Below are positions 1,361 through 64,000 of a DNA stretch of 64,000 nt, in pieces. A program made the translations under genes and the position numbers. The stretch is from the sequence record MN850584.1, one strand, 5' to 3'. How positions within the stretch are numbered: position 1 is the first letter of the stretch; every line of letters begins with the position of its first letter. This DNA is from Escherichia phage arall. The notes beneath the pieces are model-generated. The model did no database searches. It was not told where the DNA came from and was given only the letters and a program-made list of their open reading frames with translations.

Positions 1361-1912
1361 ATGCGGATTACTGATAAGTATGTGTTCTTCTTTTCGGCAA
1401 AAGATGAATTTAGCAACTGGTATCTATCATCTTTTATTGAACCTTTAGCTCCCAAGTATAATAATTCTATCACAAGTTCTGTCGAATTTACTTGTGTGGA
1501 ACAATATATGATGTGGAGAAAAGCATGTTTGTTTTATGATTACAATATTGCATCTTCTATTTTAACCGGAGATCTAAGATATACAGGAGAAAAAGAACAA
1601 GCATATTATAAGCGACTAGGTAGATTAGTTAAAGATTATGATGAAGACACCTGGACTTCTTTACGGGAGAAGATTGTCAAACGTGGTTTGTATCTTAAAT
1701 ACACACAAAATGAAGATCTCAAAAATAAACTTATTGCTTACGCAGATAAGGAGTTCGTAGAGGCAAGCCCTTATGATTCTATTTATGGTATCAAAATGGG
1801 GATGTGGGATCGGGACGTGGAAAATAAGGATTGTTGGAAAGGACAAAATCTTTTAGGAAAATGGCATACAGACCTTGCTGTTTATCTAAAAACACAATCT
1901 GATATTTCCTGA
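1361..1912 (+). CDS. NADAR (YbiA/DUF1768)-family protein, putative ADP-ribose-processing hydrolase
   Basis: Start overlaps previous stop (TAAATG); N-terminal FFFSAKDEFSNW and internal EQYMMWRKA, ASPYDSIYGIKMG, GQNLLGKWH match NADAR/YbiA conserved blocks. Confidence 0.7.
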   Translation: MRITDKYVFFFSAKDEFSNWYLSSFIEPLAPKYNNSITSSVEFTCVEQYMMWRKACLFYDYNIASSILTGDLRYTGEKEQAYYKRLGRLVKDYDEDTWTSLREKIVKRGLYLKYTQNEDLKNKLIAYADKEFVEASPYDSIYGIKMGMWDRDVENKDCWKGQNLLGKWHTDLAVYLKTQSDIS

Positions 1913-2130
1913 TATTTTGAAAATTTTTATTTTTATAAAAAGGGGTGTGGTTTCATGTACGGAAATCCACCCTCTGAATAATATATCCAGAGTAAATATT
2001 ATTCTGTACTCTGTTAATAAAGTATTTAATTTGTTTGTTGGACTATGGTATCTGATCTTTAAAAGGTATACTATCTCTTAACTACTACTTATAACAGAAC
2101 AGTAAAATCATTTTTATAAAAAGGATAAAA

Positions 2131-2327
2131 TTATTTAAAGTTTTTACAGATTTTTGGATACAAATTTTGAAAATGAAAAGTTCAAGTTTGGTCAAAATTA
2201 TTTAAAGTTTTTGTACGTATTTCTATCCAGATTTTGAAAATGAAAACTTCAATTTTTTAAAAATTCCCCAGTTTATTTAAAGTTTTTTTGCCTTTTTCCG
2301 TAGAAAAATCAAAAATGAAAAGTTCAA
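2131..2327. repeat. Three direct repeats (~55 bp units: TTATTTAAAGTTTTT...TTTTGAAAATGAAAAGTTCAA)
   Basis: Units start at 2131, 2208 and 2273; each ends with TTGAA-N9-TTCAA inverted motif. Confidence 0.8.
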
Positions 2328-2352
2328 TTTCGTGTTTTTATGGGTGTGCGGA

Positions 2353-2409
2353 TGATAATCATTCTCACTAAGAGAATGAGAATCATTAGCAAATGAGAAT
2401 TTTTCTCAT
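2353..2409. promoter_or_regulatory. Cluster of GATAAT/GAGAAT palindromes (TGATAATCATTCTC; GAGAATGAGAATCATT; ATGAGAA-TTT-TTCTCAT)
   Basis: Perfect 7-3-7 inverted repeat at 2393-2409 plus overlapping dyads; same TGATAATCATTCT motif recurs at 12237, 12295, 13148. Confidence 0.6.
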
Positions 2410-2672
2410 TTAGAGAATAACGCGCAGGGGTGGTGTTTGTCTCGCGCTCCCGTGTCCCCTCGCCATACAATAAGAATAGCATAACCAACAACAAAAGCAA
2501 GCGATTATTTTTATCTTTACATTTCTTTACAAATTTATTTTAGACGAGCTACCGGCGATCAACCTTCCAACCAGTGCCCCCTGGTATGTTAGCCCCGCCT
2601 TTACGCCGTGGGGGTGGCGTTTCCTCTTCTGTATGTAAAACAGTATAAGCCCGATCCCTGGGCTTGTCAAGA

Positions 2673-2939: not shown

Positions 2940-2985
2940 GGTATCGCCCTTTCTTTGATGTGCGCCCTGGTTGGCGCGGTAGAAA

Positions 2986-3015: not shown

Positions 3016-3055
3016 GCAAAAAAAAAGAAATGAAAAAAAGATTAAAAAAAAGGGG

Positions 3056-3307: not shown

Positions 3308-3315
3308 AAATATTC

Positions 3316-11603: not shown

Positions 11604-11987
11604 ATGAGCAATATCATCAACCTGGCAGCGACTGTAAACGGTAAAGATTTTAACGGCGCTGTAGATCGTGATCCTATGTGGTGCTTATCAGTGTTTAAAG
11701 GCGATCTGGTTGAAGTTAGAACAACCGAAGGTTATAGCGACGATTATAAATGCGAGATCCATTTACATAACTGGTACACGGGTAAAACTTATGCGCTGAA
11801 TCATGCGTTTATCGGGAAAATTGAATATCGCGAGATGATCGACGAAGAAACCGGGCAAGATTTTAGCGAAAACGTTTATATTCGTTCAGAAACATTAGCC
11901 GAACGTTTGATCGAGAAAATGAAAGCAAAAAATAAAATTAATTTAACTCATTGGATTGATATAACAAACGATCCAGCTTATCAGTAA
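11604..11987 (+). CDS. Hypothetical protein (127 aa)
   Basis: ATG with RBS ACGAGGAATCACC; in frame with ORF-track entry. Confidence 0.6.
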   Translation: MSNIINLAATVNGKDFNGAVDRDPMWCLSVFKGDLVEVRTTEGYSDDYKCEIHLHNWYTGKTYALNHAFIGKIEYREMIDEETGQDFSENVYIRSETLAERLIEKMKAKNKINLTHWIDITNDPAYQ

Positions 11988-12003
11988 ATAACATTCCATA
12001 CAA

Positions 12004-12029
12004 GGGCGCACAAAGCGCCCTTTCTTTTT
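12004..12029 (+). terminator. Rho-independent terminator (GGGCGC-ACAAA-GCGCCC + TTTCTTTTT)
   Basis: GC stem + T-run. Confidence 0.8.
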
Positions 12030-12117
12030 ACCTCAATAAAGATGATAGCTTTTACCTATCAAAAACGTTCACCGAAAAAAGTGAATAGATCGCGGTATCG
12101 AGCTAATCAAGGAGCAG

Positions 12118-12258
12118 ATGAATAACCATACCATGAAGATCATAAGGCGCTTACAACGTGTTTTAGACCGCTTATTTTTAATTTCTTCATGCAACTATCT
12201 GGCAAAAACAGCCTTTTTCTTGTCTTTCCTCTTAAATGATAATCATTCTTATTTATAG
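12118..12258 (+). CDS. Possible small ORF (46 aa)
   Basis: Good RBS AAGGAGCAG-ATG but lies in otherwise non-coding AT-rich region. Confidence 0.3.
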   Translation: MNNHTMKIIRRLQRVLDRLFLISSCNYLAKTAFFLSFLLNDNHSYL

Positions 12259-12698
12259 CTGATTATTTATGCAATAAACTGCATAATTCAATAATGATAA
12301 TCATTCTTAACTTATGACCATCTAACCTATAAAATAATAAGTTATCTAACTAAATTAAAACTAATTATCTTACTTTTATTTATAACTTACTGTTACTATC
12401 TCATTGATAACCTTATATTAAACAACAATAACTAATATAAATCATTACTAAGCTAACTATAATCTATCTAACCCTTAAAACTACAACTATAATCTATCGA
12501 ATTGTTGCACAAAGTAACTATTAAATTGTTAGTAACATTGCTAAATAATTAATATCCTATCTATTTATGATCTAATCTTTACCTTCCTATTTATTACCTA
12601 ACTAATCATTTCATACAGTAATCATTGCATACAGTAACTATGACAAGAAATATAATTCGCAAGCGTATCATTAGCAGCCTATGCCGGACACATAGGCG

Positions 12699-12845
12699 GC
12701 TAATATTAACGCAACTACACACCCCACATAATAACCATCGGTGATGGTTATTATTTGTGTTTATGTAGCTTGCAACAATTGCAAGCGCAACAATATACAT
12801 GGTATATTGTATTCCCTTACATTGTTGCGGTGCGTTAATATTAGC
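12699..12845. repeat. Nested inverted-repeat complex
   Basis: Outer 15-bp IR GCTAATATTAACGCA (12699-12713) / TGCGTTAATATTAGC (12831-12845); inner perfect palindromes ATAACCATC-GGT-GATGGTTAT (12731-12751), CTTGCAA-CAA-TTGCAAG (12769-12785), CAATATAC-ATG-GTATATTG (12791-12809), IR CGCAACAAT/ATTGTTGCG. Confidence 0.85.
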
Positions 12846-13147
12846 TAATGTTTAGAACATTGGCTATAATATAAGCTGCATATAATAAGCTATACAATAA
12901 TAAACATGGTGAATAATGACCCTGATGATCATAATGCGCCACCCTCCAGGGGGCGCTATGTGTACACAAAAAATCTTTCTTGTCAAGAAAATATTAACAC
13001 TATTGCGCAAAATTATTTACAACTGAATAGATGATTTTTCATACTATTGCCCCTATAACATACCTCATTTGTTGAGCCTACTTTCTTAAAAGCGCAATAA
13101 ATCAGAATTATCTTGATTTTTAGGGCGTTTTATAGTATAGAAAATAT

Positions 13148-13166
13148 GCAAATGATAATCATTATC
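13148..13166. promoter_or_regulatory. Fur-box-like 19-mer GCAAATGATAATCATTATC
   Basis: 17/19 match to recalled E. coli Fur consensus GATAATGATAATCATTATC. Confidence 0.4.
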
Positions 13167-13332
13167 AGCTATCTTCCACGGGTGGCACTATTTCACGCCA
13201 GATCATTTCATTTGGCAAGGTGTATATAGATGTTTAGACTTGCCAAGCCATTGATTTACTTAGAATTTATCTGTTTTGTTGTGAGTAGTACCTTTCTTGC
13301 TTAGAAAATAATCAAAAGTCTTATAAGTCATT

Positions 13333-13365
13333 GAATGATAATGCAAATGATAATTATTCTCATTG
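13333..13365. promoter_or_regulatory. GATAAT-repeat element (GAATGATAATGCAAATGATAATTATTCTCATTG)
   Basis: Two GATAAT hexamers plus ATTCTCATT half-site shared with 2353-2409 cluster. Confidence 0.4.
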
Positions 13366-13809
13366 ATATTTGAGGGGGACGGTCGGCAGAAATCGGGGGG
13401 CGCTGAAAATCGCGTTAAGCACCTCTCGCAAGCGAGCAGTGTTTTGCGGCAAGTTATTGATATTATTGACTTTACGCTTATGAAAAGGGGGTGTGTCGAA
13501 ATAAATCGGGTATACCGGAAAATTTTTGTGGCATAGATATTTATTTGTCTATATTATGTACAAAGGGGTGTATTAAAAATAATAGGTATATATAGAATAA
13601 TTGATAGGGAAATCCTATACTAAATCCTTCATTAATGATGTTCCTATGTTGCTGTTCTTGTAACAGATGAAAAGACGCTATATGATGTGTGGCATGAGAC
13701 GTAAATTTATAAGATGCAAATAATGCTTGCATTGAATAGAAATGTCTATACACTGTGTTTCATAAGATATGCAATATCGCGCATAACAAACTACTAATGA
13801 GAGGTGTAA

Positions 13810-14127
13810 ATGAGAACCTTAGCTTTGTATATTGATCCTCACTCCATTCGAGAAATGCGAGATGTACAACAGGATTACGAATTCTACCCAGAAATTTGTG
13901 AACGCTATGAAACTATTCTTAGTTCTGTAGAAGATCCAGATACTAGTGAAACAGGTGCTTCCCACTTACTGTGGATGTTGAATGAAATTCAGGATGTGTG
14001 TAATGGTATGTCTGAAACCAAACACCATCGTTGGCTAGGCTATATTCAGGGTGTTATGGTTATGAAAAACCTTATTACAGTGAACGATGAACGTAATGCT
14101 ACACGCCCCGTCTTTAATGGAGCATAA
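13810..14127 (+). CDS. Hypothetical protein (105 aa)
   Basis: First ORF of co-directional array; RBS GAGG. Confidence 0.55.
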   Translation: MRTLALYIDPHSIREMRDVQQDYEFYPEICERYETILSSVEDPDTSETGASHLLWMLNEIQDVCNGMSETKHHRWLGYIQGVMVMKNLITVNDERNATRPVFNGA

Positions 14128-25020: not shown

Positions 25021-25027
25021 CACATAA

Positions 25028-25049
25028 ACCCGCTTCGGCGGGTTTTCTT
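25028..25049 (+). terminator. Rho-independent terminator, identical to 111-133
   Basis: ACCCGC-TTCG-GCGGGT + TTTCTTG. Confidence 0.75.
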
Positions 25050-25316: not shown

Positions 25317-25396
25317 ATGACTTTATTAGAGAGTATCGTAGTGTTAATCATCTTTATCATTGTTGTCATAGGATATTTTACAGAAGACTAAAATAA

Positions 25397-25429
25397 AGCC
25401 CCTAGAATCGCTTCTAGGGGCTTTTGTTT
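25397..25429. terminator. Bidirectional terminator hairpin (11-bp stem AGCCCCTAGAA/TTCTAGGGGCT) at convergence of + and - blocks
   Basis: Long perfect stem, T-runs on both sides. Confidence 0.7.
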
Positions 25430-25792: not shown

Positions 25793-26605
25793 TTACTTAG
25801 TCAAATGATCTTCTATCATTTTTATGAAAGCAGGATTGCTAAAAGCATCTGCTGCCTTTTCTCTGTAAACAAAGACTCCTCTATCTTCGTAAAGAAGAGT
25901 TTCTTCGTAATTAATTCCTGGGTTAACAACAATCATTTTTGTACCCATATTAAGTGCAGGGAATAATTCCCAATTAAAATTGATAACTTGGTTTGAACAT
26001 CCTACTACAACAACCAAATCTTGCATGGTCAAAGTATCAAACAAGTGAGCCATATCTGCATACAAAGGTGCAGCCTCACCAAAAAATACAACATTAGGCT
26101 TCACCCAGTTATAATCATCTATGTTTATACTATTGTAACCAATATCTACCAGTGTTTTGTAATCTCCAGGATGCATACGGTAAACTACTTCAGGAAGATA
26201 CCCGTGCACGTGAATAACAGAATCCCTGTCCACACCTGCTCGCTCTAGTAGATCATCAACGTTTGTTGTCAAGTTTACTACTTGGTTAGGATATTCCTTA
26301 AACCACTTTGCTATTTGAATATGTGCAGCATTAGGTTGTACATCTTTAAGCTCAACACGTCTTTTGTTATAAAATTCGTGTGTTTTGGCATACAAGTCCA
26401 TACCGTTCTCGTCTACACCACCGACCACTGGAAGATCTGGAGATGTTCTCACACGATAACCTGCTTGGAAAGCTCCAATATCGCAGACCTCTTCTAAGTC
26501 ATATTCTTCCCATAAGGCACGACCACTATCTGTGTCTGTTCGGAACGTTCGAATCCCACTGTCTGCACTTAAACCTGCGCCACTAACAAAAATTACTCTT
26601 CGCAT
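25793..26605 (-). CDS. Sir2 (sirtuin)-family protein, Zn-ribbon-less
   Basis: GAGLSADSGIRTFR (sirtuin GAGxSxxSGIPxFR), TTNVDDL (TQNID), HVHG catalytic His, VVFFGE; no Cys4 Zn module; RBS AAGAGGA. Confidence 0.8.
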   Translation of the reverse strand: MRRVIFVSGAGLSADSGIRTFRTDTDSGRALWEEYDLEEVCDIGAFQAGYRVRTSPDLPVVGGVDENGMDLYAKTHEFYNKRRVELKDVQPNAAHIQIAKWFKEYPNQVVNLTTNVDDLLERAGVDRDSVIHVHGYLPEVVYRMHPGDYKTLVDIGYNSINIDDYNWVKPNVVFFGEAAPLYADMAHLFDTLTMQDLVVVVGCSNQVINFNWELFPALNMGTKMIVVNPGINYEETLLYEDRGVFVYREKAADAFSNPAFIKMIEDHLTK

Positions 26606-26616: not shown

Positions 26617-27162
26617 TTAGTAATCATCATCCCAAGAAGATGCGTCGTAACGCTCTTCCTCTTCGAAATCCCAATTAATTTCTACTCCAAAATCTAAAAA
26701 CAATTTAACAATGTTTTCTGTAGAGTAGTATTTATCATAAGCATTAGCTAGTTCCCAATACTTGTCACTCAATTTTTTATATTTAGGATCATTATAGTCA
26801 TAATCTACTTTATAACCATAATCATACATCTCTTGTTTAGCTTTAAGCATAGCTTCTGGTGTAAGAAGATTAGGGAACGGACGATTTCTTTCTTTTAACT
26901 TAGAAGCAATCCAGTTTGCAACATTCGCCACTTCACCATCTCGATTATCACCTAAACAACTTGCATAATCTCCATCTTCGTAAGTGCCTAAATCCCCACA
27001 GACCACATGTACAATACTTGAATACGATCCACACGTTTCACAATCTGAAAAAGTGTCTACTGTTGTAATATCAATAGATAAAACTGGTAAAGCCATAGCT
27101 TCTTTCACACAAGCCTCCTCATATAATAACATATCATCAAAACCCATATATCCTCCACACAA
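26617..27162 (-). CDS. Highly acidic, Tyr/Asp-rich hypothetical protein (181 aa)
   Basis: ORF in operon; composition only. Confidence 0.55.
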   Translation of the reverse strand: MCGGYMGFDDMLLYEEACVKEAMALPVLSIDITTVDTFSDCETCGSYSSIVHVVCGDLGTYEDGDYASCLGDNRDGEVANVANWIASKLKERNRPFPNLLTPEAMLKAKQEMYDYGYKVDYDYNDPKYKKLSDKYWELANAYDKYYSTENIVKLFLDFGVEINWDFEEEERYDASSWDDDY

Positions 27163-27164: not shown

Positions 27165-27185
27165 AAAGCCCCTGATTGGGGCTTT
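27165..27185 (-). terminator. Intergenic hairpin AAAGCCCC-TGATT-GGGGCTTT (weak terminator/attenuator)
   Basis: 8-bp GC stem; poor T-run. Confidence 0.4.
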
Positions 27186-29396: not shown

Positions 29397-29424
29397 ACAA
29401 AAAACCCGCCGAAGCGGGTTTATA
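29397..29424 (-). terminator. Terminator hairpin AACCCGC-CGAA-GCGGGTT with T-run on minus strand, followed by TTGACA
   Basis: Variant of 111-133 family; internal terminator/promoter junction in minus block. Confidence 0.6.
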
Positions 29425-30762: not shown

Positions 30763-30772
30763 GGTTTTCTCC

Positions 30773-31093
30773 TTAACAAGTAATATTGGGAGTAACAATT
30801 GGATTAACAATTGGAGTAATAGGGTACGTAAACCAAGGGCTTCCAATTTCCCAAGGATAATAAGGTCTACGAGGATCGTATGGAGGAGTTACTTCAGGCT
30901 TTTTCCAAATCTCCGCTAATTGTTTCTTCCATTTATCCCTTGCTGTCTCATTATCTTCATCCAACTGTTCATCATTATCTTTTATTTCTGGTTTTGGAAA
31001 TAAAAGCTCTTTGACTAATTCAACATCTTCCGTCTCAATAGTAGTTTCTTTCGTAAGTTCTCCTACTGTTTCTTTAATTGTGATTTTATACAT
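30773..31093 (-). CDS. Pro/Glu-rich hypothetical protein (106 aa)
   Basis: ORF. Confidence 0.5.
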   Translation of the reverse strand: MYKITIKETVGELTKETTIETEDVELVKELLFPKPEIKDNDEQLDEDNETARDKWKKQLAEIWKKPEVTPPYDPRRPYYPWEIGSPWFTYPITPIVNPIVTPNITC

Positions 31094-37738: not shown

Positions 37739-38005
37739 TTACTCCGCAATCTGAGCCATGAATTCACGTAGTTCAGAAAAACCTCCTACGTGGGTTAGCT
37801 GTTCACCATCTTCCACAAAAATCTGAGGAAATGTGCGTGGTAGAACACCTGTTTTCTCTAAAACCAGATTCTGAATCTGATCTAAAGAATAGTCTTCATC
37901 TAAGGTAAGATATTTAAAATCCTGTTCACGCTGTTCTAGTAGAATCTTAGCGTTAGTGCAGAAAGGACAATTTGGTTTACCGTAGATAATAAAATTCATT
38001 TTCAC
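37739..38005 (-). CDS. Glutaredoxin-like protein (CPFC active site)
   Basis: IIYGKPNCPFCTNAK, ~88 aa thioredoxin fold size. Confidence 0.8.
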   Translation of the reverse strand: MKMNFIIYGKPNCPFCTNAKILLEQREQDFKYLTLDEDYSLDQIQNLVLEKTGVLPRTFPQIFVEDGEQLTHVGGFSELREFMAQIAE

Positions 38006-38832
38006 TCCTTGTTTAAAAGTATAGTTAAAGTTCTTACAATACCGCTATCAACACTTCGCGGATTTAAAGTAGGATCTGTTTTTAAATAAGATGTTGCTGG
38101 TCTGACTGCTTTGGAATTATAGGTTGAAGCAGATACAGGATTAACTGTAACAGATAAATCTATAACAAGAAATATCTTTCGTGCAAAATCATACCAAGAA
38201 ATATAATCTGCACCTGCATAGTGTACAACTTTACTATTTACACCATCTTTTACAAGTTTAAAAATTGTTTCTGCAAGATCAGGTGCATAAGTAGGACATG
38301 ACAAATGATCACATACTACATTAAATTCTTTTTGACCACCGTTGTAGCGTTCCAACATAGTTTTCAAAAAGTTATGTCCAAATTCACTATAAACAGAAGC
38401 TGTTCTGATAATAAGTGCTGTAGGACAAACTGTTTGTACTAAAGTTTCACCTAATTGTTTACTGTAACCGTAGGTGTTCAAGGGGTTTGTTTTACTATCT
38501 TCTGTGCCAGCAACATGCCCATCAAAAACATAGTCTGTTGAAATATGTACAAACTGTATCAGTAAATCATTACATGCTTTGGCAATGTTTGTTGCACCGT
38601 ATGCATTAACATTTATACAGGTGTTAACATCTTCTTCAGCTTTATCTACTGCCGTGTAAGCCGCACAATTCACAACAACATCAGGCACGTGCTGTACAAG
38701 ACTATTCATAACATCTTTAAAGTTGGTAATGTCTATATCACTTGCTTCAATCAAAATAACATCTTCGGGCGCAACTTTTGCCAAAGACTGTCCTAATTGA
38801 CCTTTTGAACCAAAGATTAAAAATTTTGTCAA
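38002..38832 (-). CDS. rmlD: dTDP-4-dehydrorhamnose reductase
   Basis: N-terminal GxxGQLG Rossmann, HISTDYVFDG, YGYSK. Confidence 0.85.
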   Translation of the reverse strand: MTKFLIFGSKGQLGQSLAKVAPEDVILIEASDIDITNFKDVMNSLVQHVPDVVVNCAAYTAVDKAEEDVNTCINVNAYGATNIAKACNDLLIQFVHISTDYVFDGHVAGTEDSKTNPLNTYGYSKQLGETLVQTVCPTALIIRTASVYSEFGHNFLKTMLERYNGGQKEFNVVCDHLSCPTYAPDLAETIFKLVKDGVNSKVVHYAGADYISWYDFARKIFLVIDLSVTVNPVSASTYNSKAVRPATSYLKTDPTLNPRSVDSGIVRTLTILLNKE

Positions 38833-39383
38833 AATATGATCTCCTTTAGTGTTTTGGCTTGCTGATCTTTTTGTGACAAGATAGGTTTAAAATTAATATC
38901 ATTAAAGATTAAATCAAAACCCCAATCAATATTGATATCTGGATCATTCCACGCAAGACTACACTCTGAAGTCGGATCGTAATATTCTGTACATTTATAT
39001 TCAAAATCAGCAATGTCACTAATCACAACAAAGCCATGAGCGAAACCAGGAGGAATCCAAAATTGTGTTTTATTCTTTTCAGATAAGAGAACACCTACCC
39101 ATTCTCCAAATGTTGGACTACCAACCCTAATATCTACAGCAACATCATAAACTTCACCACGAACACAACGTACTAACTTCCCTTGTGGGTTTTTCTTTTG
39201 AAAATGAAGCCCACGTAGAACTCCTCGAATAGAACGTGAATGGTTATCTTGGACAAAGTTTTGTTTACCTATGTATTGATCATATAAAGCCTGATTAAAA
39301 CTTTCTAAGAAAAAACCACGTTCATCTCCGTAAACGTCAGGTTGAATGATCAACAAATCTTCGATTTTTGTTGCTTGAATCAT
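38829..39383 (-). CDS. rmlC: dTDP-4-dehydrorhamnose 3,5-epimerase
   Basis: GDERGFFLESF and cupin-like blocks, 184 aa. Confidence 0.85.
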   Translation of the reverse strand: MIQATKIEDLLIIQPDVYGDERGFFLESFNQALYDQYIGKQNFVQDNHSRSIRGVLRGLHFQKKNPQGKLVRCVRGEVYDVAVDIRVGSPTFGEWVGVLLSEKNKTQFWIPPGFAHGFVVISDIADFEYKCTEYYDPTSECSLAWNDPDINIDWGFDLIFNDINFKPILSQKDQQAKTLKEIIF

Positions 39384-39395
39384 TTAATTTCCCCT

Positions 39396-40265
39396 TTATT
39401 TTAATTTAAGTAAATACTTACCGTAGTCTGTTTTACTTAAAACCTCTCCAGAACTTTTTACAGAGTCTAAAGTAATCCATTCATTTTTAAAAGCAATCTC
39501 TTCCAGGCATGCAACCTTCATACCTTGTTGCTTTTCTATTGCATGAACAAATTGAGATGCTTCCATAAGACTTTCATGTGTTCCTGTATCCAGCCAAGTG
39601 AAACCTCTTCCTAGTTTACAGACACGTAAAGCCTTTTCTTTCCAGTACATCTCATTTATATCTGTAATCTCTAACTCCCCTCTAGCAGAAGGTTTAACGC
39701 TTTTAGCTTTCTGTACAACAGAATTATCGTAAAAGTACAAGCCTGTGATTGCATAGTTGCTTTTTGGTGCTTTTGGTTTTTCTTCAATACTCACCACTGT
39801 ACCTTCAGAATCAAACTCAACAACACCAAATCTTTCAGGATCATTTACGTGATACCCAAAAATATTAGCTCCACCATTCTTTTCAATATGTTCTTTAGCA
39901 GAATCTAAAATGCTACCAAAACTCTGACCAAAGAATAAATTATCACCTAGCACAAGTGCTACAGAATCTTCACCAATAAAGTTCTCACCAATAATAAACG
40001 CTTCTGCTAAACCTCTTGGGCTATCCTGTATTGCATACTGTAAGGAAATACCAAAAGAAGAACCATCACCTAGAAGATTTACAAAATTAATTTGATCTTC
40101 TGGTGTTGTAATTATTAGTATTTCCCTAATTCCAGAAAGCATTAGGACAGAGAGTGGATAATAAATCATAGGCTTATCATAAATTGGTAATAGTTGTTTA
40201 CTAACCCCTTTAGTAACTGGGTAAAGTCTTGTTCCACTACCACCTGCTAAGATAATACCTTTCAT
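39396..40265 (-). CDS. rmlA: Glucose-1-phosphate thymidylyltransferase
   Basis: [52 protein letters not shown] near-identical to recalled RmlA N-terminus. Confidence 0.92.
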
Positions 40266-40273
40266 ACTCCTCC

Positions 40274-41263
40274 TTAAACTTTATTTTCCCACCACTCTTT
40301 GTTATCTACATACCAATCAATGGTTGAATAAAGTTTTTCTTCAAATGTGCCTTTAGCTTTCCACCCTAATTCCTTTTCAATCTTATAAGGATTCACTTCG
40401 TATCTTAAATCATGTCCAGGTCTATCTGTAACCATTTCAATGAGGCTACAAGCATCTGTTTCAGATGGATACACCGCATCCATATAATCACAAATCATAT
40501 AGATTACATCAATATTAGTTCTAGGGTTTCTGCTCCCAATATTATATGTTTCTCCAGATTTGCCTTTAGTTACTACTAGGTGTAATGCTTCTGCGTGATC
40601 GTCAACGTATAACCAATCTCTTACTTGAAGACCATTGCCATAAACAGGGATTGGTTTATGCATCAAGATATTTGTTATCGTTTTAGGTATTAGTTTTTCT
40701 GGATGATGATATGCTCCAAAATTATTTGAACAATTTGTTATAACTGTCGGAATACCATAAGTACGATGCCATGCTCTTACCAAATGATCGCTTGCAGCTT
40801 TAGATGCAGCATATGGACTACTTGGTTTATAAGGATTCTGTTCTGTAAACGGATAATCCCCTTCTTCCATATCACCATACACTTCATCTGTTGAAATATG
40901 ATGGAACATTTTAAGATTTGATTTATCTCCCATTAAACGAACAGCTTCTAGAAGATTAAATGTTCCAACAATATTTGAATTTATAAAAACACTCGGTGAT
41001 GCTATTGAATTATCTACGTGACTCTCTGCTGCAAGATGCATTATATAATCTGGATTAACATCTGCCACAATCTTAGCAGTTAACTGCGCATTTGTCAAGT
41101 CAACACGACAAAACTTTACATTAGGTGTTTCTGATAAATTTCTAGGGTCTGAAGCGTAACCCCATTTATCTATAACGTAAATATCATTCTTAGTATTTTT
41201 AGCCAGGAAACGAACTACTGCACTTCCAATAAAGCCTAAACCACCTGTTACTAAGTATTTCAT
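40274..41263 (-). CDS. rmlB: dTDP-glucose 4,6-dehydratase
   Basis: [60 protein letters not shown]. Confidence 0.92.
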
Positions 41264-52543: not shown

Positions 52544-53428
52544 TTATTTTTGAATAGTTGACTTAATAAGGTCTTGCATAATACCACGGATTTCATTAAA
52601 GCACAGAAGGACAGATGCTTCAAAAGATCCTTCTTCATCGTTAAAGTATTTAGGGAATTTAATACCACTCAACTTAAATTCTTTATCAACAATAAAGTTA
52701 ACGAAACCGTCATATTCCAGGCCAATGGCAACAACGTGCTTACCATCTTCCATAAGTTCTACTGCACGAGATTCATAAAGGGATTCTTTACTCCATACAA
52801 CCACACCTTCAGAATCTTCAAGTTTAATATAATTACCAAGGGTCAGTCGTTCAGCCTCATGTTCTTCTAAGATGGTATCAAAACCTTTAATAATGGCTTC
52901 TTCGTGTACACTAAACGGCAGAACTGGGAAAGTACCCAACACCTCACGAAGAAACACAGCAATATCTTCACTAATTTTCTTAGTACCATTAAGAACGTAG
53001 GTAATACTGTTCTCAGTGTCTACAACAACATAGTTATAGAAATCATCTGCCTCTGTTTCTGGGAGCAGAGAAAACACGATATCAGCCTCAATTGCTTTTT
53101 TACTTTCTTTATCCAAGAAGAATTCTTTAGTAGGATTTGCAGCAATAAACTCTTGTTCCATCTCTTGGAGTTTTTCATTAAGAATGCGTTTAACTTTTTT
53201 CTTGTTAACTTTCTTAACAGATTGCCCTACTTTAATAACCTCTAAACCAGAGAACACTTTTACATAGGAACCATCATCTTCAAAACGAACAAGACCAATG
53301 GTATGTGCTTGTTGACCCTGTGCCACAACAAAATCCAGCGGTTTGTCTGTTACTGTGTTCAGTGCGGAAATAGACAGACCATCACCAGAAATCAGGGTTA
53401 CGCAAGATTTGAAATTTTTAGCAAACAT
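52544..53428 (-). CDS. RdgC-like recombination-associated protein
   Basis: LGTFPVLPFS vs recalled RdgC LGSLPVVPLS, SLLP block, C-terminal similarity; ~300 aa. Confidence 0.5.
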   Translation of the reverse strand: MFAKNFKSCVTLISGDGLSISALNTVTDKPLDFVVAQGQQAHTIGLVRFEDDGSYVKVFSGLEVIKVGQSVKKVNKKKVKRILNEKLQEMEQEFIAANPTKEFFLDKESKKAIEADIVFSLLPETEADDFYNYVVVDTENSITYVLNGTKKISEDIAVFLREVLGTFPVLPFSVHEEAIIKGFDTILEEHEAERLTLGNYIKLEDSEGVVVWSKESLYESRAVELMEDGKHVVAIGLEYDGFVNFIVDKEFKLSGIKFPKYFNDEEGSFEASVLLCFNEIRGIMQDLIKSTIQK

Positions 53429-53730: not shown

Positions 53731-53754
53731 AGCCCCCGAAGGGGCTTTATTTCT
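53731..53754. terminator. Hairpin AGCCCC-CGAA-GGGGCT + TTATTTCTT
   Basis: GC stem; T-run is on + strand though flanking genes are on -. Confidence 0.45.
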
Positions 53755-54476
53755 TAAGCAATGATTGCTGCGATATTAGGTTTAACAAAGGTAGATGGTT
53801 TCATAATTTTACCTTTGTCATCAAAGAATACGTACACCTTTTGAACTTCGTTATATACAGCATGTACCCCAGTATAAGAACCTTCTGCACGATCTTTGCT
53901 TCGCATCTCGATAGCATCGCACTCTTTTTCAAGAGCTTCAATAATATCCTTAGTTTCCCAAATAGCCAGGAGTTGCTTCTTGGTAGGATACTTGGACTCA
54001 TTGCTATTCAACACTTCACGCATAACCTTCTTCTCGTTATAAACAGAACGCACCAAAGTATCTCGTGCCATACGGGTAAGTGTAAGAGACATTAAGGCAA
54101 ATTGCAAGTCATTTTCTACCATTTTATCAAATTCAATGATAACATCGTAAATGTTTTCTGCCAGAACATCTCCTGTCGGCATTTCCAGAGCTTTATCAAC
54201 ACCTTCTTTACCAAAGAACATAAATGCCAGGTAGGATGCTACCACAAAAATATCTGCTGCTGCATCAAGTAATTCAACGTGATCATTTTCCTGTGCTGCT
54301 GCTTGAAACTCTTTAAGTTCTTCTCGTACAAAAGAAAGTTGAGCTTCAAACATCTCTTGAGTAAATTCTGGAGTTACTCCACCGCGTGCCTTAGCATTCC
54401 AAGCAACAATTTGATCGGCAGCTTTGATAAAGAAGCTATTGTCCACTTTTACTTGTTTGAAAAAATTCTCGATCAT
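53754..54476 (-). CDS. Hypothetical protein, possibly all-alpha NTP pyrophosphohydrolase (MazG-like)
   Basis: Spaced acidic residues in helices (ELKEF...ELLDAAADI); weak. Confidence 0.3.
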   Translation of the reverse strand: MIENFFKQVKVDNSFFIKAADQIVAWNAKARGGVTPEFTQEMFEAQLSFVREELKEFQAAAQENDHVELLDAAADIFVVASYLAFMFFGKEGVDKALEMPTGDVLAENIYDVIIEFDKMVENDLQFALMSLTLTRMARDTLVRSVYNEKKVMREVLNSNESKYPTKKQLLAIWETKDIIEALEKECDAIEMRSKDRAEGSYTGVHAVYNEVQKVYVFFDDKGKIMKPSTFVKPNIAAIIA

Positions 54477-56530: not shown

Positions 56531-56935
56531 TTATTGTAGCTTAAGTGAACTGCGAAGACGTTTCTCTTGCTGATCACGAATATGTTGTGGAACCTCATGA
56601 ATTGAGTCGTTACCGTGCCTATTTTCAACAACTAAAGAGATAACTTGATAACCAAACTCTTCAGCAAGAGTTAAATAAGGTTTAAGTTCTTTCTCTGTGG
56701 TTGAAGTGTTAGAGACAATAATCTTTTTAATATTAGATGCCATAGCATCACGAACAATACTCTGACACCATGCGTGGGCTTTACCTACATTTTCTGGCTT
56801 CCAATCGTAAACACCCCTTTCTGTGTAATGGTATTGATCTGCCTCACAGATAGGCCAATAACCTTCAGAAATAATTTCTGCTACTGTAGATTTACCTGCA
56901 CCTGAAACACCACGTAAAATGATAAGTTGTTTCAT
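56531..56935 (-). CDS. P-loop polynucleotide kinase (Pnk kinase-domain-like)
   Basis: IILRGVSGAGKST (Walker A), IIVSNT; parallels recalled T4 Pnk kinase domain. Confidence 0.65.
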   Translation of the reverse strand: MKQLIILRGVSGAGKSTVAEIISEGYWPICEADQYHYTERGVYDWKPENVGKAHAWCQSIVRDAMASNIKKIIVSNTSTTEKELKPYLTLAEEFGYQVISLVVENRHGNDSIHEVPQHIRDQQEKRLRSSLKLQ

Positions 56936-57868
56936 TTAGCCTCCAAAGAAGTTTTCTATTTCTTTACGTCGCTCTTGTGGAGCTAGAGCAGCCCATTGAA
57001 CCTTCGTAAAATTATTTCGAAGCCATTCTATCAAAGTATAATATTCTTCGTCAACAATTTGTTTAGCATTATTTGGGTTGTCCCAAATCATATCCCACTT
57101 CTTATTACCACCACGCATAAGGAACTTCTTAGCAAGATAGTATGGTGACTTAATTTTTAAGAGTAAGTTAAACGGGTAGTTTGTTTCACGAACAACAAAG
57201 CCTTCGTGTCTACAATGTTTAGACATTTCAACAACATCTGAAAATTTAATCATCGGATAAACTTCAGGACGTTTAAATTTTGTAATAGATGCAATCCCAT
57301 CAAGAACACCTTCAGGTAACATGAAACTTGTCCCATCAAGATTTTGAATTCTTGCTCCAATTAAGTATGCGCCTGGTTCTTCTTCGACAATATGTGGATC
57401 AGAAGGATCACAGATTTCAAAAAGGAAAGTTGCTTTTGCACTTTCTGTCCACTTAATGAAATACTCTATGTCATCACACTCGGAAACAATACGGTTCTTG
57501 GCAATAGTTGCAAAGTCTGACTCTAGGCTCCCTGTTGTTGATACAACAAGTTTCCCTTTGTACACACCTACAGATGCCATAAAACCGTTTACTTTACGGA
57601 CAGCATCTACAAATTCATCTCCTGGAAGATCTGTACCATTCTCAAAACGATTAAAGATTTTAGTAAAAGGCCAAATAACAATATTATCTTCTGAGTCAAC
57701 AACCAACCCACGACAATCTAAAAGTCGTTTGTCAACGTTCCACAAGTTATCCCAGAATACATTGTTTTTGTATTTAAGTACAGCAAGACCAGCATACTCT
57801 CCAGATTTAACTTCTTTTTTATGCACTAAACCTTTTGCAATCAGGTCATCACAATTGAACTTAGCCAC
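56936..57868 (-). CDS. RNA ligase-like nucleotidyltransferase (GTG start)
   Basis: RKVNGFMA (motif I KxNG), HEGFVVRE (motif IV), LLLKIKSPYY (motif V); RBS AAGGAG. Confidence 0.55.
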   Translation of the reverse strand: MAKFNCDDLIAKGLVHKKEVKSGEYAGLAVLKYKNNVFWDNLWNVDKRLLDCRGLVVDSEDNIVIWPFTKIFNRFENGTDLPGDEFVDAVRKVNGFMASVGVYKGKLVVSTTGSLESDFATIAKNRIVSECDDIEYFIKWTESAKATFLFEICDPSDPHIVEEEPGAYLIGARIQNLDGTSFMLPEGVLDGIASITKFKRPEVYPMIKFSDVVEMSKHCRHEGFVVRETNYPFNLLLKIKSPYYLAKKFLMRGGNKKWDMIWDNPNNAKQIVDEEYYTLIEWLRNNFTKVQWAALAPQERRKEIENFFGG

Positions 57869-57869: not shown

Positions 57870-58421
57870 TTAATCTCCTTTGATTATCTTATGATGGTCT
57901 ACAACAATAATATCACGCTTATCCATAATAGAGATGATTTCGTCAAAATGCAAGATTTTCCCGTGTGCATCCCAACCAACATCCAACATTTTCCCATACA
58001 AATGATCAGGGAATGATCCGTGAGAGTGTCCGTGTAGCATGATTGATCCATGCCCTTGTTTATTCCAGGCAGCCATAGGGTAATGACTTAAGACGAAGAA
58101 CAATTTCTGATATTTCACTTCGTCATAATACACAACTTCTCCATACTCTGCAAGCACTTTTCTGTGTTTACTGTAATCATGGTTCCCAACACAGTAAGTA
58201 ATATCCCCTTGGAGACGGGAAGCAATCTTACGGGTATCTTCTTCAGTCCCGAAACAGAAGTCCCCAAGATGGTACATCTTTACTCCTGGTGTTGTGGCAC
58301 ATTTATTCCATGCTTCGATCAGTGCTTCTGTCATATGCTCCATATCTTCCCACGGGCGATATTCAGGAGCAAACTCTCGGATACGTTTGTGCATAAAATG
58401 CAAATCACTTGTAATAAACAT
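57870..58421 (-). CDS. Calcineurin-like metallophosphoesterase (putative RNA 3'-end healing phosphatase)
   Basis: DLHFMH, GDFCFG, GNHD, HGHSHG motifs. Confidence 0.75.
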   Translation of the reverse strand: MFITSDLHFMHKRIREFAPEYRPWEDMEHMTEALIEAWNKCATTPGVKMYHLGDFCFGTEEDTRKIASRLQGDITYCVGNHDYSKHRKVLAEYGEVVYYDEVKYQKLFFVLSHYPMAAWNKQGHGSIMLHGHSHGSFPDHLYGKMLDVGWDAHGKILHFDEIISIMDKRDIIVVDHHKIIKGD

Positions 58422-58938: not shown

Positions 58939-59313
58939 TTAATAGTTAACACGTTTAATTTCAACACCATAGGATGCAATAAAATTTTCCTTAGCTAACA
59001 TATATTTACCAGCAGCAGAAGGATTTGATGTATGAACATAGATAGTTTTAAGAGCATCCCATTCACCTGCGTACAACATACATTCTACGTCTAAGAACGC
59101 ATGATATCCTTCTTGATCTTCTCCAAGATCATTATCGAAGTGTATCTCTGAAATATTATTGAAATTATCTTCATCTGAAACAAAAGATGACCAATCCCCA
59201 AAAGATTTTAACCAAATGGCATCCTCATAACCATAATCTTTAGGATCTCTTAAATCGTCTAACCAAAGAATTTTAGCCACTATCAACCCCCTTCCTGTTT
59301 CTCTTCTTTCCAA
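58939..59313 (-). CDS. Hypothetical protein (124 aa)
   Basis: ORF. Confidence 0.5.
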   Translation of the reverse strand: MERRETGRGLIVAKILWLDDLRDPKDYGYEDAIWLKSFGDWSSFVSDEDNFNNISEIHFDNDLGEDQEGYHAFLDVECMLYAGEWDALKTIYVHTSNPSAAGKYMLAKENFIASYGVEIKRVNY

Positions 59314-61276: not shown

Positions 61277-61315
61277 AGAAAACATAAAGTCCGAACTCAA
61301 CTAAGGAGATAAACA

Positions 61316-62209
61316 ATGAAAGTTAGTATTCTACATGGTGTTGACTGTTATGTTACTGATGTAGACGTTAAAGTCTTTACATTCTCTGGTGGAGAACAAC
61401 ATGTTCAACTAGATACGAATCTATCAGGTTTCAATCATGCTACAGACAGAATCTTACTCTCTTTAGAAGTAAGATCTGCTAAAGACTTGATGACTTTGGT
61501 TATGACTAAGAATGCATTGGACAATATGCTATATCATAAACCATATTGTGTTGATTTGCTCATGTTGTATGTGCCATATGCACGACAAGACAGAGTGTGT
61601 GAACCTGGGGAAGCATTCGGAGTTAAAGCATTTGCTTCTATAATTAATTCATTAAATTTCTCACGTGTTATCGTTGCTGATCCACATAGTGATGTTACTC
61701 CAGCGGTGTTTGACAGACTCTGTGTAATACCTCAAGAAGAGATTGCTTACGAAACTTTAAAGTGGAAGTTACGTATGGAGAATTTTGCTCTTGTTAGTCC
61801 TGATGGTGGTGCTCTTAAGAAAATATTTAAATTATCTAAGAAAATGTCTTTAGATGTGTTCTGTGCAGAGAAGGTTAGAGATACTGCAACAGGTGCTATT
61901 GTTCGTACAGACATTTCTGTACAGGATTTCAATAAGCGTAACCTGATGATCGTAGATGATATCTGTGACGGCGGTAGAACTTTTATTGAATTGGCTAAAG
62001 TGCTACGTGCTCGTAACGCAGGTAAGATTGAGTTATATGTTACACACGGTATCTTTTCTAAAGGTCTTAAAGAGTTAAGTGAGCACTTTGACTGCATTCA
62101 TTCTCTTAATGTGTGGGAAGATAACATCCAAGAAGATTCCGGTGTTCTTGTTAAGAATCAGTCAGATTTGCAACAACAAATTGTATCTCCATACGTGTGG
62201 AATTTTTAA
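61316..62209 (+). CDS. Ribose-phosphate pyrophosphokinase (Prs)-family protein; candidate ADP-ribose pyrophosphokinase of NARP1-type pathway
   Basis: VPYARQDRV, ADPHS, VSPDGGA, MIVDDICDGGRTFIEL...YVTHGIFSKG parallel recalled Prs; adjacent to NAMPT-like gene. Confidence 0.8.
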   Translation: MKVSILHGVDCYVTDVDVKVFTFSGGEQHVQLDTNLSGFNHATDRILLSLEVRSAKDLMTLVMTKNALDNMLYHKPYCVDLLMLYVPYARQDRVCEPGEAFGVKAFASIINSLNFSRVIVADPHSDVTPAVFDRLCVIPQEEIAYETLKWKLRMENFALVSPDGGALKKIFKLSKKMSLDVFCAEKVRDTATGAIVRTDISVQDFNKRNLMIVDDICDGGRTFIELAKVLRARNAGKIELYVTHGIFSKGLKELSEHFDCIHSLNVWEDNIQEDSGVLVKNQSDLQQQIVSPYVWNF

Positions 62210-62219
62210 ATAATAAGTG

Positions 62220-62254
62220 TTGACAATAGGGAGTATGCTTAGTAAGATACTCCC
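62220..62254 (+). promoter_or_regulatory. Sigma70-like promoter TTGACA-17-TAAGAT overlapped by palindrome GGGAGTAT-N10-ATACTCCC
   Basis: 8-bp inverted repeat spans spacer and -10. Confidence 0.55.
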
Positions 62255-62280
62255 ACACTAACAAACAAGGAGACATAACT

Positions 62281-64000
62281 ATGAATATTTTTGCACCTTT
62301 TGCTACTGATTGGTATAAACCTGGTCACAAGCAGATGTACAACCAAAATACAAAACTCATTTTCTCTAATTTAACTCCTCGTAATGATAAAAACTTTGCA
62401 CACTATGCAGATCGTGAAGCACGTGGTGTAATTGTTTTAGGTATTCGTCGAGCAGTTACTGATGCTCTTGTAACTATGTGGGATAGCTTCTTTAAAATGT
62501 CTCGTAGTGCAGCAGTAAATAAGTTTTATCGTATGTCTAAAAATGCATTAGGTGCTTCTTCTCCTTCTGCTGAATGTTGGGGAGAATTGCACGATTTAGG
62601 TTATCTTCCGCTGGAAGTTCGATCTCTGCCAGAAGGTGTTTTGTGTCCTATTGGTGTTCCTGTGTTTACTGTGCATAATACTTTAGAAAAATTCTTTTGG
62701 TTAACTAACTATGTGGAAACACTATTGTCAGATGAAACTTGGAAGACAATGACTAATGCTACAGCAGCTTTTCAGTATAAGCGTATTGCTATGGCATATG
62801 CGATGGCAACGTGTGATAATATTGATCACGTTAACTTCCAGTGTCATGATTTTAGCCTACGTGGTTTAAGTAATATTGAAGATGGTTATAAGAGTGGTAT
62901 CGCTCATTTGGCATCGTTCACAGGCACAGATAATATTCTGGCTATTGAAACTGTGCATGATTATTATGGTATTGATTATGATCAGTTTGTTGCAGGTTCT
63001 ATTCCGGCAACAGAACATTCAGTAGCAACGACTAACATTGGAGCTATTGTTGAAGATCTGAAGAAACATTTCCCACATCTTAAAGATGATGTTGATGGGC
63101 TTCGTTATGTAGCAGAGAAAGAGTTTCTTCGCCGCTATATTGAAGAAATTGTTCCAGAAGGTTTTTGTTCATATGTAGCAGATTCTTATGATTACTGGGC
63201 TGTCTTGACTCGCATTCTGGTAGAATTGAAAGAGTCCATTATGTCACGAAATGGTCGTCTTGTTATTCGTCCAGATTCAGGAGATCCGGTTAAAGTTGTT
63301 GCAGGATACAATGTTGAATCTTTTGCTAACTATGAAGACCTTTTAAATAATGGTATTGCTACAGCCACTGAAGTAGTTCATTTGGCTGATGTTAATAAGT
63401 ATTACAATGTTCTTCAGGATTGCAGTGTTGCTGATTGTATTGATGAAACTTATGAGATTCCTTATTGTGAAGCAGTAGGTTCTATTCAAATCCTTTGGGA
63501 AGTGTTTGGTGGTACTATCAACCGAAAAGGCTACAAGGTTCTTGATCAGCACATCGGTATGATTTATGGTGATTCTATTACTGTTGAACGAGAACACGAG
63601 ATCTTACGCCGACTGAAGAAGAAAGGTTTTGCAGCTTCCAATATTGTATTTGGTGTTGGTAGTTATACTTATCAGTTCAATACACGAGATACTTTTGGTT
63701 TTGCTGTTAAAGCAACAGGTAGTATCATCGGTGAACACGAAATTTTGGTAAGTAAGGAGCCTAAAACTGATCCTGGTAAACGCTCTGCAAAAGGTTTTAT
63801 TAAGGTTGTTAAGGATACAAATGGTAAACTTTCTCTTGTGGATAATCTTTCTTTTAAAGATATTCAAGATGAAGACAATGAGTTAAAAGTTATCTTCAGG
63901 GATGGTACGGTTATTACACCACAAGTAGAAGGACGTGATGAAACATTTACTGATATCCGCAACCGTGTTGATGTAGAGGTTCTTCGTACTATGGGAACCA
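62281..64000 (+). CDS. Nicotinamide phosphoribosyltransferase (NAMPT/NadV)-family protein, 3'-truncated by window; candidate nicotinamide ADP-ribose transferase
   Basis: TDWYKPGH (TDSYK), CHDFSLRG, GTDN, VIRPDSGDP, GMIYGDSIT, FGVGS. Confidence 0.8.
   Translation, partial: MNIFAPFATDWYKPGHKQMYNQNTKLIFSNLTPRNDKNFAHYADREARGVIVLGIRRAVTDALVTMWDSFFKMSRSAAVNKFYRMSKNALGASSPSAECWGELHDLGYLPLEVRSLPEGVLCPIGVPVFTVHNTLEKFFWLTNYVETLLSDETWKTMTNATAAFQYKRIAMAYAMATCDNIDHVNFQCHDFSLRGLSNIEDGYKSGIAHLASFTGTDNILAIETVHDYYGIDYDQFVAGSIPATEHSVATTNIGAIVEDLKKHFPHLKDDVDGLRYVAEKEFLRRYIEEIVPEGFCSYVADSYDYWAVLTRILVELKESIMSRNGRLVIRPDSGDPVKVVAGYNVESFANYEDLLNNGIATATEVVHLADVNKYYNVLQDCSVADCIDETYEIPYCEAVGSIQILWEVFGGTINRKGYKVLDQHIGMIYGDSITVEREHEILRRLKKKGFAASNIVFGVGSYTYQFNTRDTFGFAVKATGSIIGEHEILVSKEPKTDPGKRSAKGFIKVVKDTNGKLSLVDNLSFKDIQDEDNELKVIFRDGTVITPQVEGRDETFTDIRNRVDVEVLRTMGT

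Follow-up and report, generated by a model that had tools for sequence, protein, structure and literature searches.

The window analyzed here is a 64,000-nucleotide stretch of the Escherichia phage arall genome (sequence record MN850584.1), in which four separate loci encode proteins linked to the chemistry of NAD+ or ADP-ribose (ADPR): a NADAR-domain protein, a Sir2-like protein, a stand-alone SLOG/DprA-like protein and the Adps-Namat pair of the NARP1 pathway. A 10-kb probe from the window is 99.6% identical to phage inny, and the window belongs to Justusliebigvirus, a genus of phi92-like myoviruses with genomes of approximately 147 kb; 50 records cover at least 80% of the probe, and EmilieFrey (BASEL Bas61; Justusliebigvirus, Stephanstirmvirinae) serves as a well-annotated relative. 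The genes of the four loci are the following.

1361-1912, + strand: NADAR-domain protein (Pfam PF08719), orthologue of AdfN(Bas60)
25793-26605, - strand: CobB-like (class III) sirtuin without the Cys4 zinc module (Pfam PF02146)
26617-27147, - strand: 176-amino-acid protein, apparently co-transcribed with Sir2 in a unit predicted from promoter and hairpin positions
30184-30762, - strand: stand-alone SLOG/DprA-like Rossmannoid protein of 192 amino acids, with the start taken from the EmilieFrey annotation
61316-62209, + strand: Adps, ADP-ribose pyrophosphokinase with a phosphoribosyl pyrophosphate (PRPP)-synthetase fold, NARP1 step 1
62281-64000, + strand: Namat, nicotinamide ADP-ribose transferase, NARP1 step 2, cut by the window end about four codons before its stop

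The initial annotation had placed these loci at positions 1361, 25793, 30184 and 61316 and had suggested that they form a coordinated toolkit for controlling host NAD+ and ADP-ribosylation. All four are indeed present, and each passes validation by sequence profile or by fold.

The two modules with the firmest functional assignment are NARP1 and NADAR. Adps matches the Pfam families Pribosyltran and Pribosyl_synth as well as PRPP synthetases in the PDB (E = 6e-15). At 297 residues it is shorter than its bacterial PRPP-synthetase counterparts (approximately 315 residues), with which alignments stop near residue 250-270; an Adps would be expected to have lost the C-terminal alpha11-alpha12 module of the canonical enzymes. 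Its DDICDGG motif and K186, which correspond to the catalytic DDxxDxG and the flexible-loop lysine, are invariant among eight homologues, and the protein is approximately 40% identical to the Adps of ICP1, for which a structure has been solved. The co-directional Namat gene starts 72 nucleotides downstream, and the best PDB match of its product is the SpbetaL1 Namat (9w5x, E = 5e-118), with human NAMPT at 1e-48. The aromatic residues of the selectivity clamp are also kept, F392/Y396 of SpbetaL1 being replaced by Y/F within the 'GSYTYQFNTRD' stretch of the window protein. As described by Osterman et al. 2024, Adps pyrophosphorylates ADPR, an activity demonstrated for the SpbetaL1 and ICP1 homologues, and Namat joins the resulting ADPR pyrophosphate to nicotinamide, thus restoring NAD+ and defeating the SIR2-HerA, DSR, type I Thoeris and SEFIR defenses. 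The window pair reproduces the two-gene, co-directional PRPP-synthetase-like plus NAMPT-like arrangement and belongs to the set recorded by these authors, whose Tables S1/S2 list the Adps proteins of phi92, inny and EmilieFrey with a Namat neighbor ('Yes') and classify the Namat proteins as 'Adps-associated'. NARP1 operons are further known to recruit ADPR-yielding enzymes, namely the Macro-domain protein Adpp, which acts on ADPR-1''-phosphate, and the RyR-domain protein RyDEP, which acts on 2'/3' cyclic ADPR (cADPR); within the window, neither a Macro nor a RyR accessory gene is found in or beside the operon.

At the opposite end of the window, the NADAR domain is recognized with E = 2.5e-36 and 125.8 bits against a Pfam gathering cut-off of 35.1, and residues E47/K54/E134 align with the catalytic E43/K50/E125 of the P. 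nicotianae NADAR structure 8bau. The protein is identical in 182 of 183 residues to bas60_0111 of phage PaulScherrer (Bas60), is found in the same genus and at the same genomic position, and is essentially indistinguishable from this orphan NADAR antitoxin. Johannesman et al. 2025 showed that Bas60, Bas61 and Bas62 share the NADAR protein AdfN(Bas60), that it neutralizes DarT1 in E. coli and that it rescues three phages on DarTG1 (PMC11825919). By near-identity to the Bas60 protein, the window NADAR is assigned as a DNA guanine-ADP-ribosyl glycohydrolase that counters DarTG1. Immediately upstream lies a 397-residue open reading frame (ORF; 167-1360, + strand) with four CapR-homology repeats (Pfam E = 1.1e-38), which ends one base 5' of the NADAR start codon and also weakly matches the DUF4379 zinc-finger and T5orf172 (GIY-YIG-like) families. 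It is just 81% identical in two IMG/VR contigs of the same genus, the corresponding position in PaulScherrer holds a 467-residue gene, and the ORF could represent a mobile or homing-type element that moves together with NADAR.

The Sir2 protein is matched by PF02146 with E = 1.3e-22 (81 bits against a cut-off of 24), and its top sequence match in the PDB is E. coli CobB (1s5p, E = 1.5e-18). An AlphaFold model with a predicted local distance difference test (pLDDT) score of 90.9 retrieves CobB, Af-Sir2 and SIRT5 as the leading Foldseek matches, and all top 50 matches are deacylase-type sirtuins. The likeness to CobB and the class III sirtuins extends over the Rossmann core, the NAD-binding motifs, the catalytic histidine and the FGE loop, with template modelling (TM) scores of 0.71-0.84, and the GAGxSxxSG, TTNVD, HxHG and FGE motifs are invariant across the phage Sir2 family (30-32 members). 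The window protein differs, however, by an insertion of variable length after residue 50 and by the loss of the Cys4 zinc module: the region aligned to that of CobB contains no cysteines, so that it lacks the metal-binding residues that a classical deacylase requires. The protein presumably consumes NAD+. That it is a captured defense NADase of the ThsA, DSR or SIR2-HerA type was considered and rejected, as PADLOC returns only a match to PDC-S65 at 0.0066 and the Foldseek matches are of the deacylase type.

The predicted Sir2 unit comprises a sigma-70-like promoter matching the consensus at 12 of 12 positions (27230-27201), a hairpin at 27185-27165, the ORF of the 176-residue protein, Sir2 itself and a terminator-like hairpin at 25785-25768. 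The hairpin follows the promoter within approximately 15 nucleotides, an unusual promoter-then-terminator order. The 176-residue protein has no Pfam or PDB match and occurs only beside Sir2, in Stephanstirmvirinae-like contigs. In the BASEL annotation this gene and that at 32173-32745 are both called 'putative aminoacyl-tRNA synthetase'; we rejected both their paralogy and their identification as recognizable enzymes, as the two share no mutual similarity and have no Pfam or PDB support.

What the sirtuin might act on is best considered together with a set of genes that the initial annotation had missed, i.e. a cREC/RNA-repair cassette, which ends approximately 2 kb away from Adps and Namat and is carried by the other strand, and a MazG-like gene.

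53754-54476, - strand: MazG-like nucleotide pyrophosphohydrolase (Pfam PRA-PH, E = 3.2e-7)
56531-56935, - strand: PNK-like P-loop kinase (Pfam AAA_33, E = 5e-10)
56936-57868, - strand: Rnl1-like RNA ligase (Pfam RNA_lig_T4_1, E = 4.5e-14)
57870-58421, - strand: calcineurin-like phosphoesterase (Pfam Metallophos_2, E = 4.8e-4)
58939-59313, - strand: cREC (cyclic-phosphate-processing receiver) domain protein (Pfam PF20274, E = 3.9e-13, 50.3 bits against a gathering cut-off of 27)

For the viral NAD+-ADPr network of Iyer, Burroughs, Anantharaman and Aravind 2022, these authors reported that Macro, NADAR, SLOG and Nudix proteins co-occur above chance, that NADAR is found near NadV-type genes and that a clade of sirtuins occupies RNA-repair neighborhoods (PMC9503650). 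They tie the cREC, phosphoesterase, RNA ligase, kinase and MazG set to this viral sirtuin clade and to the processing of ADPR cyclic phosphate, and predict that cREC resolves RNA 2',3'-cyclic phosphate or ADPR 1'',2''-cyclic phosphate (PMC9503650). The window resembles the network in holding NADAR, SLOG, sirtuin, cREC, NadV-like, MazG, RNA ligase, kinase and calcineurin-like phosphoesterase genes together, and the prediction of counter-defense against ADPR-based immunity applies to this set as well.

The zinc-less, CobB-derived Sir2, in its own predicted two-gene unit, most likely uses NAD+ to act on a macromolecule, and the role that we favor would be RNA 2'-phosphate removal together with the products of the cREC/RNA-repair cassette, as suggested by the gene neighborhoods of its relatives. 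In Vequintavirus and in 4MG-like phages the RNA-repair cassette is contiguous with Sir2. A somewhat unlikely alternative is that the protein mimics CobB, acting as a host-takeover deacylase or ADP-ribosyltransferase on E. coli proteins rather than in RNA repair. Its nearest relatives in both sequence and fold, CobB, Af-Sir2 and SIRT5, are bona fide deacylases, and the acyl-lysine-contacting FGE loop is preserved throughout the phage family together with the catalytic histidine; furthermore, the Justusliebigvirus Sir2 has its own early-type predicted promoter away from the RNA ligase, and T5-like phages carry Sir2 without RNA-repair genes nearby. On the other hand, the zinc module on which classical deacylases depend has been lost, several lineages place Sir2 in one operon with the RNA ligase, kinase and cREC genes, and Iyer et al. 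assign the viral sirtuin clade to RNA-repair contexts (PMC9503650). RNA 2'-phosphate removal is retained here as the preferred role.

The fourth locus required validation by fold. The ORF as listed (30184-30846) begins at a TTG codon, while the EmilieFrey start gives 30184-30762, and the protein has no Pfam match of its own. It falls into PHROG 768 (E = 2e-60), and among 49 homologues 33 weakly match DprA (PF02481) and three match the SLOG cluster4 family of Pfam. The AlphaFold model reaches a pLDDT of 96.6 and its Foldseek matches include DprA (4ljl, 1.6e-6), the molybdenum cofactor carrier protein (MCP), ShosA, LOG, ThsA-SLOG and YpsA. The SLOG fold assignment thus holds. The protein has invariant GSR, RSGxAxGxD, HxRNxxQ and GGT motifs, and the Rossmannoid fold with the GxR, SGxAxGxD and GGT motifs is common to DprA, ShosA and ThsA-SLOG. 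The window protein differs from all three in being a single domain of 192 residues below the Pfam thresholds, devoid of SAM, winged-helix or effector domains; with a PDB profile match to DprA of only 0.076, it is not assigned to the DprA family proper. An orphan ShosA-like antitoxin was likewise rejected, as no PADLOC match is obtained at E <= 0.01 and the resemblance to ShosA is at fold level only.

We infer the link of this protein to NAD/ADPR chemistry from its superfamily; candidate roles are the binding or processing of a nucleotide or of an ADPR derivative, and the binding of single-stranded DNA (ssDNA). Of these, it probably binds or cleaves a nucleotide or an ADPR-derived small molecule, a reading that draws on the fold, the invariant pocket residues and the position of relatives behind NARP1-Macro genes elsewhere. 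That the protein is instead a DNA-binding mediator of recombination or repair like DprA or ShosA, unrelated to NAD/ADP-ribose, is in our view somewhat unlikely. Its best Foldseek matches are the H. pylori and S. pneumoniae DprA and ShosA, DprA is the sole Pfam family reached by many of its relatives, both ShosA and DprA bind ssDNA, PhoH is its most frequent neighbor, and in the window it is surrounded by methyltransferase and recombinase genes. Nevertheless, the SAM and C-terminal domains of DprA/ShosA are missing, TM scores to DprA reach merely 0.5-0.6, the PADLOC search offers no support for ShosA, the invariant polar residues H114, R116, N117, Q120 and D44 suggest a small-molecule pocket, and the gene recurs behind Namat-Macro in other phages. 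Binding or cleavage of a nucleotide or ADPR-derived small molecule remains our working assignment.

Several features of the SLOG surroundings in other phages were recorded along the way. The commonest immediate neighbor is a PhoH-like ATPase gene 0.6-0.8 kb upstream (e.g. in loci L028, L039, L040, L052-L055, L060, L063 and L067), and PhoH lies within 10 kb of SLOG at 36 of 78 SLOG-seeded loci, in 11 of 34 lineages; the PhoH gene of the window (36287-37039) is 5.5 kb away. In several Pseudomonas-phage-like contigs with an Adps-Namat-Macro-SLOG order, a conserved ORF of approximately 50 residues (…YRDAVEYKPGHWLAPGSEA.ELYKAKK…) directly precedes SLOG (L035, 9530-9679; L046, 9828-9998; L069, 9487-9687; L075, 9531-9683), and at L049 a DUF7831 protein (Pfam E = 1.4e-27) replaces it.

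We then considered whether the modules are arranged as a unit. The four loci occupy both strands at distances of 4 to 60 kb from one another, in at least four predicted transcription units with terminator-like hairpins between them, and the gene blocks and the elements that set the SLOG unit apart are laid out as follows.

1-25.4 kb, + strand: block of small early-type genes
25.5-61 kb, - strand: long block of nucleotide-metabolism, replication and repair genes
29402-29421, - strand: terminator-like hairpin AAACCCGCTTCGGCGGGTTT followed by a T-run, separating the predicted SLOG unit from the Dcm and Sir2 units
29397-29369, - strand: promoter-like site TTGACA-17-TAAACT, after the hairpin at 29402-29421
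from 61.3 kb, + strand: start of a further block, which in relatives continues into a tRNA array

GC-rich hairpins more generally punctuate the - strand block (25026-25045, 29402-29421, 25395-25424 and 27165-27185); one hairpin sequence, AAACCCGC-TTCG-GCGGGTTT, is present at two sites, and a bidirectional hairpin with a 13-bp stem is found where the + and - blocks converge.

Comparison with ESCO5, a syntenic 149-kb phage of the sister genus Phapecoctavirus, supports separate gain or loss. ESCO5 encodes NADAR (59% identity), Sir2 (65%), SLOG (66%), cREC (40%) and the RNA-repair genes (86-94%); Adps and Namat are absent from its whole genome, and the site syntenic to NARP1 holds just two tiny ORFs ahead of the tRNA array. 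NARP1 is therefore a cassette of approximately 2.8 kb that was gained or lost alone. Conversely, a 149-kb relative in IMG/VR has SLOG, Sir2 and NARP1, and no close NADAR was found in it. The NAD/ADPR-linked proteins of the window are much more diverged from their ESCO5 counterparts (40-66% identity) than the replication and nucleotide-metabolism proteins (72-94%), a pattern that fits faster evolution or allele replacement of putative counter-defense genes. The Dcm-like methyltransferase and the thymidine kinase are likewise missing from ESCO5. Among 50,697 phage records, the four families differ in their host and lineage distribution, with raw frequencies, uncorrected for phylogeny, of 3.1% for Adps, 1.4% for NADAR, 1.9% for Sir2 and 2.5% for SLOG.

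A different picture of physical linkage emerges from other phages. We searched IMG/VR with each family as seed and examined 10 kb on either side of each match, and then applied a stricter test (same strand, gap of at most 3 kb) with controls that included DNA ligase, PhoH, ribonucleotide reductase (RNR) and a NinI-like phosphatase. Namat lies within 10 kb at 78 of 80 Adps-seeded loci. Around 80 NADAR seeds, Adps is found at 21 and Namat at 25 loci, always co-directional and often with NADAR between the two, and under the stricter test NADAR-Namat pairs persist at 19 loci in 3 lineages, with controls at no more than 1. SLOG-Namat pairs pass the same test at 10 loci in 5 of 34 lineages, where a Macro-domain gene (Pfam E = 1.9e-7) lies in between, i.e. 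the published NARP1-AP arrangement with SLOG added; among the controls, the NinI-like phosphatase reaches 4 lineages and PhoH 3, and PhoH, NinI and RNR-beta are found at more loci (12-14). For Sir2 with RNA ligase, kinase, phosphoesterase or cREC, the stricter test returns 2-4 of 14 lineages, similar to DNA ligase with 5. At the broader ±10-kb scale, the Adps-, SLOG- and Sir2-seeded sets contain DNA ligase, PhoH or RNR as often as they contain the theme partners; RNA-repair/NARP1 and SLOG/NARP1 linkage at this distance was for this reason downgraded as evidence of coupling, and the stricter test alone was retained. SLOG was detected within 10 kb of Adps at 0 of the best 80 Adps loci, hidden Markov model searches included. 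In the 4MG/Ro1-like phages, the genes for Namat, Adps, phosphoesterase, RNA ligase, cREC, kinase, Sir2 and NADAR are gathered into a single island of 14 kb.

In these phages, the NADAR and SLOG relatives occupy positions inside or behind NARP1 operons equivalent to those of the accessory genes in NARP1-AP (Adps-Adpp-Namat) and RyDEP-NARP1, whereas in the window NADAR is 60 kb and SLOG 31 kb from NARP1; that either would supply ADPR is suggested by this analogy. Their recurrence in such operons makes NADAR and SLOG candidate feeder enzymes of NAD+ reconstitution, next in line to Adpp and RyDEP. We found no paper connecting NADAR with NARP1 as a feeder in the literature searched, and the embedding of NADAR and the placement of SLOG behind Macro in NARP1 operons therefore constitute a modest lead, drawn from other phages, the window genes being unlinked.

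The initial annotation had also noted no canonical ADP-ribosyltransferase (ART) in the window. This agrees with our Pfam scans, which covered 72 and 49 otherwise unannotated ORFs and approximately 40 further ORFs individually: ART, RES, DarT, Alt-like, Macro, Nudix, TIR and RyR families are absent from the matches listed for the 121 unannotated ORFs (E up to approximately 0.036 and 0.008, respectively) and from the Pfam results of the 40 individual scans. As the search was Pfam-based, the absence stands at the level of sequence only.

Taken together, the dispersed loci, the different defenses that they answer, the absence of NARP1 from ESCO5 and the control-level linkage at ±10 kb indicate that these behave as independently gained and lost modules sharing a chemical theme rather than as a single regulated system. 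We consider it probable that this phi92-like phage carries several independent modules, all acting on NAD+ or ADP-ribose products. Adps and Namat would convert ADP-ribose, nicotinamide and ATP to NAD+, allowing the phage to survive SIR2-HerA, DSR, type I Thoeris and SEFIR; NADAR would hydrolyze ADP-ribose off the guanines of phage DNA and so cancel the DarT1 toxin. These two steps draw on published experiments with homologues of approximately 40% identity or near-identical proteins, respectively, and we infer the contributions of Sir2 and SLOG described above. The modules would share their chemistry and probably a selective pressure, host NAD-based immunity, while being separately transcribed, as predicted, and separately gained and lost. 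Much of this content is already known: the functions of NARP1 and AdfN are published, and the overall concept is that of Iyer et al. 2022 (PMC9503650).

Several points weigh against this reading. The promoters and terminators were called by their match to a consensus alone. NARP1 activity has been demonstrated with homologues of no more than approximately 40% identity (Bas63, SpbetaL1, ICP1 and Fado) and not with a phi92-type pair. A role of Sir2 in RNA repair is predicted in the literature and, unlike in the network of Iyer et al., the Justusliebigvirus sirtuin lies approximately 30 kb from the RNA ligase/cREC cassette and is paired instead with the 176-residue protein. Finally, the ADPR link of SLOG could be wrong because its nearest structural relatives, DprA and ShosA, bind DNA.

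Among the rival explanations that concern the set as a whole, the one that fares best, though we regard it with doubt, attributes the theme to genome size: as large myoviruses accumulate many accessory nucleotide-metabolism genes in one non-structural region, several NAD-related domains would end up together and close by without any functional link. The frequencies of NADAR, NadV, Nudix and cREC indeed climb steeply with genome size (Iyer et al., PMC9503650), RNA-repair genes are found within 10 kb of Adps in 9-11 of 58 lineages against 11 of 58 for DNA ligase, and SLOG pairs with Adps in 6 of 34 lineages and with DNA ligase in 7 of 34 at the same distance. At operon scale, however, NADAR-Namat association rises above the controls no control is seen in more lineages than SLOG-Namat and the Sir2-RNA ligase/kinase pairs are similar to the DNA ligase control, and anti-defense roles have been proven for two of the modules.

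It is distinctly unlikely, in our estimate, that NARP1 is the hub of a wider salvage network, intact but dispersed in Justusliebigvirus, in which NADAR and SLOG act as feeders making plain ADPR from N-glycosidic or other modified forms while the zinc-less sirtuin, cREC and phosphoesterase run an NAD+-consuming RNA repair whose ADPR cyclic phosphate is recycled by NARP1; the feeders might then use ADPR-guanine, the N1- and N7-cyclic forms of ADPR and further products of TIR or ART enzymes.

Least probable is the coordinated toolkit of the initial annotation in its full form, in which Sir2 or host enzymes make ADPR derivatives, NADAR, SLOG and cREC convert them to ADPR, NARP1 returns NAD+ and the genes are interdependent: the component annotations are valid, NAD/ADPR anti-defense functions are published for NARP1 and AdfN-type NADAR, and the families are physically joined in other phages, through NADAR genes lying within NARP1 operons (in the order Adps-NADAR-Namat or others; 19-25 of 80 loci), SLOG behind Namat-Macro, the 14-kb island and the precedent of the feeder enzymes Adpp and RyDEP, but the window genes are spread over 60 kb on both strands in separate predicted units, NARP1 answers NAD+ depletion where NADAR answers DNA ADP-ribosylation, ESCO5 keeps NADAR, Sir2 and SLOG without NARP1, the 149-kb IMG/VR relative has the reverse gap, SLOG is missing near the best Adps loci, and a DNA-directed function already suffices for NADAR in this genus.

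The remainder of the window contains a complete dTDP-rhamnose pathway (RmlA/B/C/D-like in the EmilieFrey annotation; 38002-41263, - strand) in its middle region, adjoined by glutaredoxin and endolysin genes. The - strand block also encodes a proteasome/HslV-like peptidase (35106-35759; Pfam Proteasome, E = 1.7e-5) and an RdgC-like protein (52544-53428; Pfam E = 2.3e-19); host RdgC was reportedly pulled down by ShosA. The stretch of approximately 1.8 kb at 11987-13810 carries very short ORFs only; a search for tandem repeats in this gene-poor region (12-13.8 kb) revealed nothing notable, and no Rfam family was matched in the window.

NAD+ is a focal point of the conflict between bacteria and phages, and the phi92/BASEL Bas60-62 genus, which comprises therapeutic-type E. 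coli phages, combines several countermeasures of this chemistry that are independent of one another. Its zinc-less sirtuin and stand-alone SLOG protein, both widespread in phages, are leads for functional work. Recognition of the modules helps predict which host defenses these phages evade, namely NADase systems via NARP1 and DarTG1 via NADAR.

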